Origin: Amphiscolops sp. MND2022
Taxonomy: Eukaryota
DNA length: 64,000 nucleotides
Assembly: GCA_964187785.1 (NCBI GenBank)
Contig: OZ076409.1
Coordinates: 31,498,001 to 31,562,000, forward strand
Direction: 5' to 3'
The position numbers and the translations under genes are program-made. The notes below the pieces were generated by a model that had not been told where the DNA came from, ran no database searches, and was given only the letters and a program-made list of their open reading frames with translations. Each line of letters begins with the position of its first letter. The stretch's first letter is position 1. Positions 21,933-22,422 of the stretch are shown here, piece after piece.

Positions 21933-22422
21933 TGTACCATACTGAAACAACTCCAGTTGAGAGAGAACGAACTTTCACATATTTGGAGTGATTCTTTCAA
22001 CCTTTCAAATATTTAACTTTTGAATGACGTTCAATGTTTTTTCTTCAAATTGGAATTTGACATTTAAATAACCTTCATACATAATGATTGGAATTACTGA
22101 ATAACAAAATCATAAGAACTATAATCGCAGAAAAAAAACAGCTTGGTTTTGAATACTAAGGAAACTCACCAGGATTGTTGCTCACAGCATCCGATGATCC
22201 GCTCTGCCAAGACTGCTAAACAGCTGAGAAGAAATCACTAAGTCTCTAAGAGACAATACAGGACTAGTCATTATGTATGAAGGTTATTTAAATGTCAAAT
22301 TCCAATTTGAAGAATAAACATTGAATGTCATTTAAAAGTTAAGTATTTGAAAGGTTGAAAGAATCAGTCCAACTATGTGAAAGTTCGTCCTCTCTCAACT
22401 GGAGTTGTTTCAGTATGGTACA
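21933..22422 (+). repeat. Putative 3' LTR (490 bp) with 155-bp terminal inverted arms
   Basis: Begins TGTACCATACTG and ends CAGTATGGTACA. 21933-22087 pairs with 22268-22422 (7 mismatches by eye). Directly preceded by the PPT; no TSD around it. Confidence 0.75.

Follow-up and report, generated by a model that had tools for sequence, protein, structure and literature searches.

A 490-bp unit with 155-bp mirror-image arms as the likely 3' LTR of an env-bearing Ty3/Gypsy element

How does a sequence that stands where a retrotransposon's 3' long terminal repeat (LTR) is expected come to end in two arms that mirror one another over 155 bp? Complementarity and conservation at the LTR ends of Metaviridae span ~7 bp, with integrase specificity extending over 8-15 bp (PMC3601003), which agrees with the premise of the earlier note that LTRs normally carry short terminal inverted repeats. 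The window analyzed here is the whole stretch of 64,000 nucleotides, and all positions refer to it. The features that bear on the question are collected in Table 1.

Mirror-image arms and their left junction

In the 490-bp TGT...ACA unit, the first 155 bases (21933-22087) are complementary in reverse to the last 155 (22268-22422) at 148/155 positions (95.5%); seven substitutions and no indels separate these arms (BLASTN E 1e-67 within the 64-kb window). The earlier note, which had described 155-bp arms of ~95% identity around a 180-bp spacer, was exact in its coordinates. This pair is the longest among the 86 inverted pairs of the window, where the runner-up reaches 57 nt at 70%. The folding energy of the unit is -272 kcal/mol for RNA (z -35.7) and -165.5 for DNA (z -25.3), and in each case 0/100 shuffles fold as well. 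The mirror-image arms are confirmed as a real feature of the unit, seen in one copy. That the unit is an LTR is an interpretation, and a likely one, where a terminal mirror of 155 bases contrasts with the usual ~7.

Neither the unit nor its spacer has a second copy within the 64-kb window. Exact DNA scans of genome, viral and metagenome contigs with the arm end or the tract-arm junction returned 0 matches, and Rfam over 21500-23000 gave a single chance-level match outside the unit (E 0.23). Tolerance of the arm mismatches through G-U pairing (3/4 transitions, + strand) was not significant.

Table 1 Features of the element, the 490-bp unit and its right flank, in window positions
Feature	Position	Strand	Remarks
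pol remnant: RT, RNase H, integrase (H2C2 + rve), proline-rich stretch, weak Macro-like domain	11988..16459	+	3 in-frame stops, frameshifts
Short antisense ORFs between pol and env	17520..18951	-	best Pfam E 0.065
env-like gene	19263..21623	+	four frames, one in-frame stop; F-type by weak feature match
3' untranslated region, env stop to purine tract	21624..21920	+	homologous to part of P0123
Polypurine tract	21921..21932	+	12 nt, 11 purines; touches TGT of unit
TGT...ACA unit, likely 3' LTR	21933..22422	+	490 bp; adjoins purine tract; left junction common to P0123
Left arm, putative U3 start	21933..22087	+	155 bp; 148/155 complementary to right arm
Spacer	22088..22267	+	180 bp; holds sole TATAA, 22120-22124
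Right arm, putative R end and U5, or inverted U3 copy	22268..22422	+	155 bp; holds sole AATAAA, 22313-22318
Right flank, host-repeat patchwork	22423..22645	+	similarity to other window repeats; no PBS at junction

The earlier note had placed the unit directly after a polypurine tract and in the position of a 3' LTR. The first point is confirmed, the tract touching the TGT; the second is supported by the tract, by the env-like gene upstream and by a left end common to at least one diverged sister. The env-like gene, which belongs to a 5'-truncated Ty3/Gypsy element, ends 310 bp before the unit starts. A comparable purine tract precedes 57 of 127,970 positions and 3 of the 2,457 TGTs in the window, by a frequency criterion that was set after the tract had been seen.

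Junctions in sister copies were sought via chance ORFs called on those copies, that is to say, among proteins and not DNA. A 95-residue frame crossing the purine tract into the unit retrieved 1 protein among 1 candidate, P0123, which comes from a contig of 220,525 bp, the window ORFs being on one of 452,566 bp. P0123 matches the 3' untranslated region of the window in two frames, with part of it missing and the upstream portion diverged. At its end, 26 of the last 32 residues are identical, and the final SVPY falls where the window frame stops inside the unit, where P0123 would likewise terminate at a stop codon. P0123 likely comes from another subfamily, through a tie to the env protein P0151 (which has another C-terminal tail) that consists of a size match only, both being on 220,525-bp contigs. 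P0123 covers only about the first 13 bases of the unit. Because this diverged sister has the same tract-to-unit junction, those ~13 bases after the purine tract are a property of the family; had a TA insertion occurred in the window copy alone, the sister would continue into other sequence, which P0123 does not. The left end of the unit is very likely the start of the family LTR.

Frames crossing deeper into the arm, used as protein queries, gave 3 matches among 1.84 billion representatives, all of them long, unrelated-looking and at 32-46% identity. No sister was found with these arm-crossing frames, and an exact look-up of window frames returned 0/3. Such blank searches have little power, because a single UTR-crossing ORF was found against env clusters of 36 and 8 members.

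The element, its signals and the right boundary

Pfam places RVT_1, RT_RNaseH_2, Integrase_H2C2 and rve in that order along the pol remnant; RT together with RNase H spans 11988-13268, and the two integrase domains, H2C2 and core, fall within 13810-15171. The order RT-RNase H-integrase assigns the element to the Ty3/Gypsy type, and an RT feature search finds eukaryotic RVT_1/RT_RNaseH as the nearest clusters. The C-terminus of pol (16022-16459, + strand) carries a weak match to a Macro-like (ADP-ribose) domain, with most of the profile covered at a Pfam E of 0.053. Upstream of ~11,900 within the window, no gag, second unit or matching target-site duplication (TSD) was found, and for this reason the copy is taken as 5'-truncated; the 5' LTR and PBS of the unit-bearing element are likewise absent from the window.

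The last piece of the env-like gene has 79 relatives among 559 candidates. A relative, P0085, lies nearest to Baculo_F/Gypsy-env clusters with a score of 0.94 (37-71% of members), at a recognition of 1392 that is below the threshold of 2300, and Pfam returned no informative env family for 4/4 env relatives. Several sisters have env ORFs of 761-787 residues. Three of the seven window ORFs have an entry in the protein collection, and their clusters at 90% comprise 8, 2 and 36 members (15 of them listed for the largest); judging from these sequences, the element family is multi-copy. Protein-guided locus searches with RT or env returned 0 loci, one scan reporting 1 relative among 15 stretches and no locus. 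As separate observations, P0060 and P0091-P0104, which make up 15/15 listed of a 17-member env cluster, are on equal-size contigs, which suggests a tandem array of env pieces. In P0145, the end of env runs into a match to the RNase H region 13561-13635, which suggests a rearranged copy.

Judged by eye, the antisense ORFs between pol and env include one with a likeness to an integrase H2C2 zinc region, beside it one that recalls an OTU-like protease motif, and a third that looks like a small membrane protein; Pfam on these ORFs supports none of the three likenesses. Ginger1 transposases combine an integrase with OTU (PMC2836005). The earlier note had seen in these ORFs a fit with bidirectional promoter and poly(A) activity of the unit. 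They lie 3 kb off, however, and nothing ties them to it.

The proposed bidirectional activity itself is not supported by the signals within the unit. TATAA occurs once, at 22120 on the + strand, which places it in the asymmetric spacer. The one AATAAA, likewise on the + strand, begins at 22313 in the right arm; a mismatch at 22040 disrupts the corresponding mirror site in the left arm. TATAA followed by AATAAA is the order of an LTR, although 20,000 shuffles of that arm produce AATAAA in 23% of cases, which leaves the signal weak. A full hairpin would be expected in two kinds of molecule only, read-through RNA and plus-strand strong-stop DNA, and not in RNA that starts and ends inside the LTR.

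To the right of the unit, ~220 bp resemble host repeat rather than LTR. Part of this flank is 81% identical over 42 nt to 4128-4169, a dispersed repeat that is also found at 10229 and 11156; further parts match 28080-28133 (78% over 54 nt) and 1346-1386 (83% over 41 nt). All three matches are short, with E values of 2e-4 to 5e-7 within the window. Because the right flank resembles host repeats, the element would end at 22422, exactly opposite the LTR start in the mirror.

The flanks of the unit share only 2 bp (AG), and there is no 4-6-bp TSD at its TGT/ACA boundary. Against its own reading, the earlier note had set the case of an independent MITE with a TSD of its own, which is not what this locus holds; an independent MITE is an unlikely identity for the unit. 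When the boundary is shifted inward by 4 or 5 bases, TA or GTAC duplications appear, the TA being what is expected outside the TIRs of a Tc1/mariner-type MITE, but palindromic ends force such duplications.

Origin of the symmetric unit

The best reading is an inherited symmetric LTR. The unit would then be a complete 3' LTR, belonging to a Ty3/Gypsy family that bears env; its spacer and right arm are known from this single copy. We give this reading about an even chance. It is favored by the position of the unit, the P0123 junction, the lack of a TSD, the foreign right flank and, weakly, the order of the signals, together with an excess of arm differences (7 against 2.8 expected).

That excess comes from a comparison of arm divergence with the age of the copy. 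Decay was estimated from 25 close env relatives chosen from 151 fetched proteins, where residues seen in no sister were counted. The window copy has 14 such private residues among 738, corresponding to a neutral change of ~0.9% (0.5-1.5%). If the arms were identical at insertion, 2.8 differences (1.5-4.7) would be expected where 7 are observed, and the probability of 7 or more is 0.024 (0.001-0.19). If the count is widened to residues found in no more than one sister (21), ~4 differences would be expected, and a stop-based age estimate of 1.7%, with its wide range of 0.3-4.8%, is compatible with arms identical at insertion. Taken from the sequences at hand, these figures lend modest support to arms that already differed at insertion, which would fit inherited imperfect arms.

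Against an inherited symmetric LTR stands a second Gypsy element in the window, which has ordinary LTRs without long arms. This full-length, decayed element of ~19 kb (34272-53332, - strand) is bounded by LTRs of 275 bp at 53332-53058 and 34546-34272, identical at 264/275 positions, and has a PBS-like TGG, several additional ORFs downstream of pol and a 4-bp duplication, ACAC. Its LTRs start with TGTAC, and 12 of their 30 terminal bases are complementary. A TGTAC start is thus usual here and a 155-bp arm is not. As a side observation, the second element interrupts a satellite-like array, and ~1.3 kb of its interior looks duplicated near 48,000-51,100.

The principal alternative is an event confined to this copy, in which either reverse transcription switched templates or two inverted LTRs became fused; taken jointly, the two are doubtful but have to be reckoned with. 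For the first, which on its own is unlikely, strand-displacement synthesis suggests a route. During plus-strand synthesis through the 3' LTR, reverse transcriptase would have left its template near base 335, moved to the displaced plus-strand strong-stop DNA and copied U3 in reverse, from base 155 to base 1, until it ran off exactly at the att end, and integrase would have accepted a second U3-type end. In that case the inverted ends of the true family LTR would be short, and progeny, which take U5 from the 5' LTR, would not inherit the change. Such an error by reverse transcriptase would explain the exact stop at the mirror of the first LTR base, the ungapped arms, the P0123 junction and the foreign flank, all without a new type of LTR. 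It predicts, however, arms identical at insertion, where the seven mismatches exceed the 2.8 expected (P 0.024, up to 0.19), and the sole AATAAA of the LTR would be a coincidence (23% by chance).

Fusion within the genome is the less probable of these two events and would have involved two nearby LTRs of the family in opposite orientation, where a deletion left the initial 335 bp of one LTR joined to the initial 155 bp of its neighbor. The 4.5% difference between the arms is then about that among sisters, most of the closer ones differing at 1-6% of env residues. The family is multi-copy, and the 15 listed members of a related env cluster on equal-size contigs make local clusters likely; opposite-facing LTRs have also been proposed as a source of terminal inverted repeats (TIRs) (PMC2836005). 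Fusion nevertheless needs two rare events, a close inverted neighbor and a deletion with both ends inside LTRs, and no remnant of a second copy was found in the window.

Improbable as well, and ranked behind fusion, is the insertion of a non-autonomous DNA transposon at the LTR start, here or in a founder, either a Ginger-like element or a MITE with TA or GTAC targets whose TIRs begin inside the palindromic end. Taken alone, the unit does have the anatomy of Ginger elements, with TGT...ACA ends and a TIR length within their 40-270 bp (PMC2836005), and a boundary 4 or 5 bases further inward yields TA or GTAC duplications. TA-flanked MITE-like elements that start with CAGT and have arms of ~22-26 bp are found in the window at 1630-1816 and 5372-5536. 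On the other side, the TGT/ACA boundary has no 4-bp TSD, only AG, and the TA and GTAC duplications are trivial given palindromic ends. The fifth base, C, breaks the TGTNR of Ginger, the diverged sister P0123 has the same junction, which as the one sister junction retrieved is an occupied and not an empty site, and a host repeat follows the unit, so that the true LTR would have to be missing. The P0123 junction and the analysis of the flank lower the probability of a TA-MITE in a palindromic LTR start. For a non-autonomous Ginger element, the TIR length is in range, whereas the ends read TGTAC and not TGTNR and a 4-bp TSD of its own is lacking.

Amplification is known to produce inverted duplications separated by a spacer, but a chimera of assembly or amplification (a fold-back read) is very improbable here, given 7 substitutions and 0 indels between the arms and a right arm that stops exactly at the LTR boundary and does not continue into sequence of the purine tract and env.

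Predicted consequences and known systems

LTR elements replicate such that the polypurine tract defines the left end of their cDNA and the tRNA primer the right end. For an inherited symmetric LTR, U3 would begin with the left arm and U5 would lie within the right arm, where transcription is predicted to start in the spacer and to end near the AATAAA of the right arm. Integrase would meet the same sequence at both cDNA ends. In the genomic RNA, the right arm would come first (5') and the left arm last (3'), and the two could pair, such that 5' R-U5 complementary to 3' U3 would amount to a long version of the Ty1 CYC5/CYC3 cyclization. The tRNA-primed and the polypurine-primed strands would begin with the same 155 bases, and template swaps between them may keep the arms alike. 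Read-through of the whole LTR would produce a 155-bp hairpin RNA, a possible source of small RNAs.

A stronger version, which we put forward tentatively, is that the LTR is a Ginger-like foldback unit, where every full-length copy would have 155-bp TIRs beyond its direct repeats and a solo LTR would be a ready-made TGT...ACA MITE for integrase-type enzymes. If true, LTR retrotransposons and Ginger DNA transposons would have a living intermediate in such an LTR, and the RNA ends would circularize over up to 155 bp. How LTRs relate to the TIRs of DNA transposons with Gypsy integrases is an open question in print, to which a symmetric-LTR family would offer one concrete route. With such a family one would also ask how long self-complementary sequences are tolerated by a retroelement, retrotransposons being stated to have no repeats of this kind (PMC7084138). 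If the arm is instead a one-off, the locus is of lower value, as a record of integrase accepting a duplicated U3 end or of a local rearrangement.

The closest known anatomy is that of Ginger DNA transposons, which the unit resembles without being classed among them. Ginger1 and Ginger2/Tdd have TGTNR ends, TIRs of 40-270 bp and a 4-bp TSD (CCGG/CCGT, or RTATAY targets) (PMC2836005). The likeness comprises the TGT...ACA ends, a TIR length of 155 bp and a Gypsy-like integrase chemistry. In contrast to Ginger elements as that paper describes them, which have neither RT nor polypurine tract, the unit has no TSD, has a terminus that reads TGTAC and follows a polypurine tract.

Env-carrying Gypsy elements are widespread in invertebrates (PMC13524379), and the element resembles these errantiviruses, in the sense of that paper, in its RT-RNase H-integrase order, an env behind pol with weak F-type features, a purine tract followed by a TG start and its multiple copies, with env as a full-length ORF in sisters. 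It differs from them in the antisense ORFs between pol and env and in a terminal inverted repeat of 155 bp against ~7 bp; the word 'inverted' does not occur in the main text of PMC13524379. Metaviridae LTRs likewise have TG...CA ends and an AT-rich TATA-like stretch upstream of AATAAA (PMC3601003), whereas complementarity at their att sites is far shorter than the 155 bp found here. A search of literature titles found no title describing an LTR with long inverted ends, a result that does not establish absence from print.

The CYC5 and CYC3 sites of Ty1 are short. Their role in cyclization has been demonstrated genetically, and CYC5 adjoins the PBS (PMC7969010). Shared with Ty1 would be complementary 5' and 3' RNA engaged in long-range pairing, which here is a prediction; it would extend over up to 155 bp and, unlike in Ty1, would come from the LTR termini themselves. 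Sirevirus LTRs, in plant Copia elements, have palindromes of ~17 bp repeated in their upstream half and tied to siRNAs (PMC4728375). These too place a hairpin-forming sequence, proposed as a small-RNA source, inside the LTR, whereas in the present unit one long stem joins both LTR termini.

Long inverted terminal sequences also occur in the retroelement DIRS-1, which has a tyrosine recombinase and no polypurine tract. A DIRS/tyrosine-recombinase retroelement is excluded here, as the element has a DDE integrase (rve, Integrase_H2C2).

The remainder of the window holds further repeats and one host gene. Downstream of the right flank, 22802-24478 (+ strand) is an open LINE-like RT fragment of 558 codons (RVT_1 E 9e-20), and 25576-26116 (+ strand) is a host gene assigned to the SH3BGR family (E 2e-14), whose second exon likely lies near 26045. 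A dispersed repeat of ~0.7-1 kb is present in three copies that are 94-99% identical (3446-4388, 9510-10489 and 10507-11252), and a 172-bp tandem array occupies 6877-7563. Finally, 31400-34270 and 53330-60800 form a higher-order satellite-like array, with subunits of ~150-177 bp and periods of ~325 bp.
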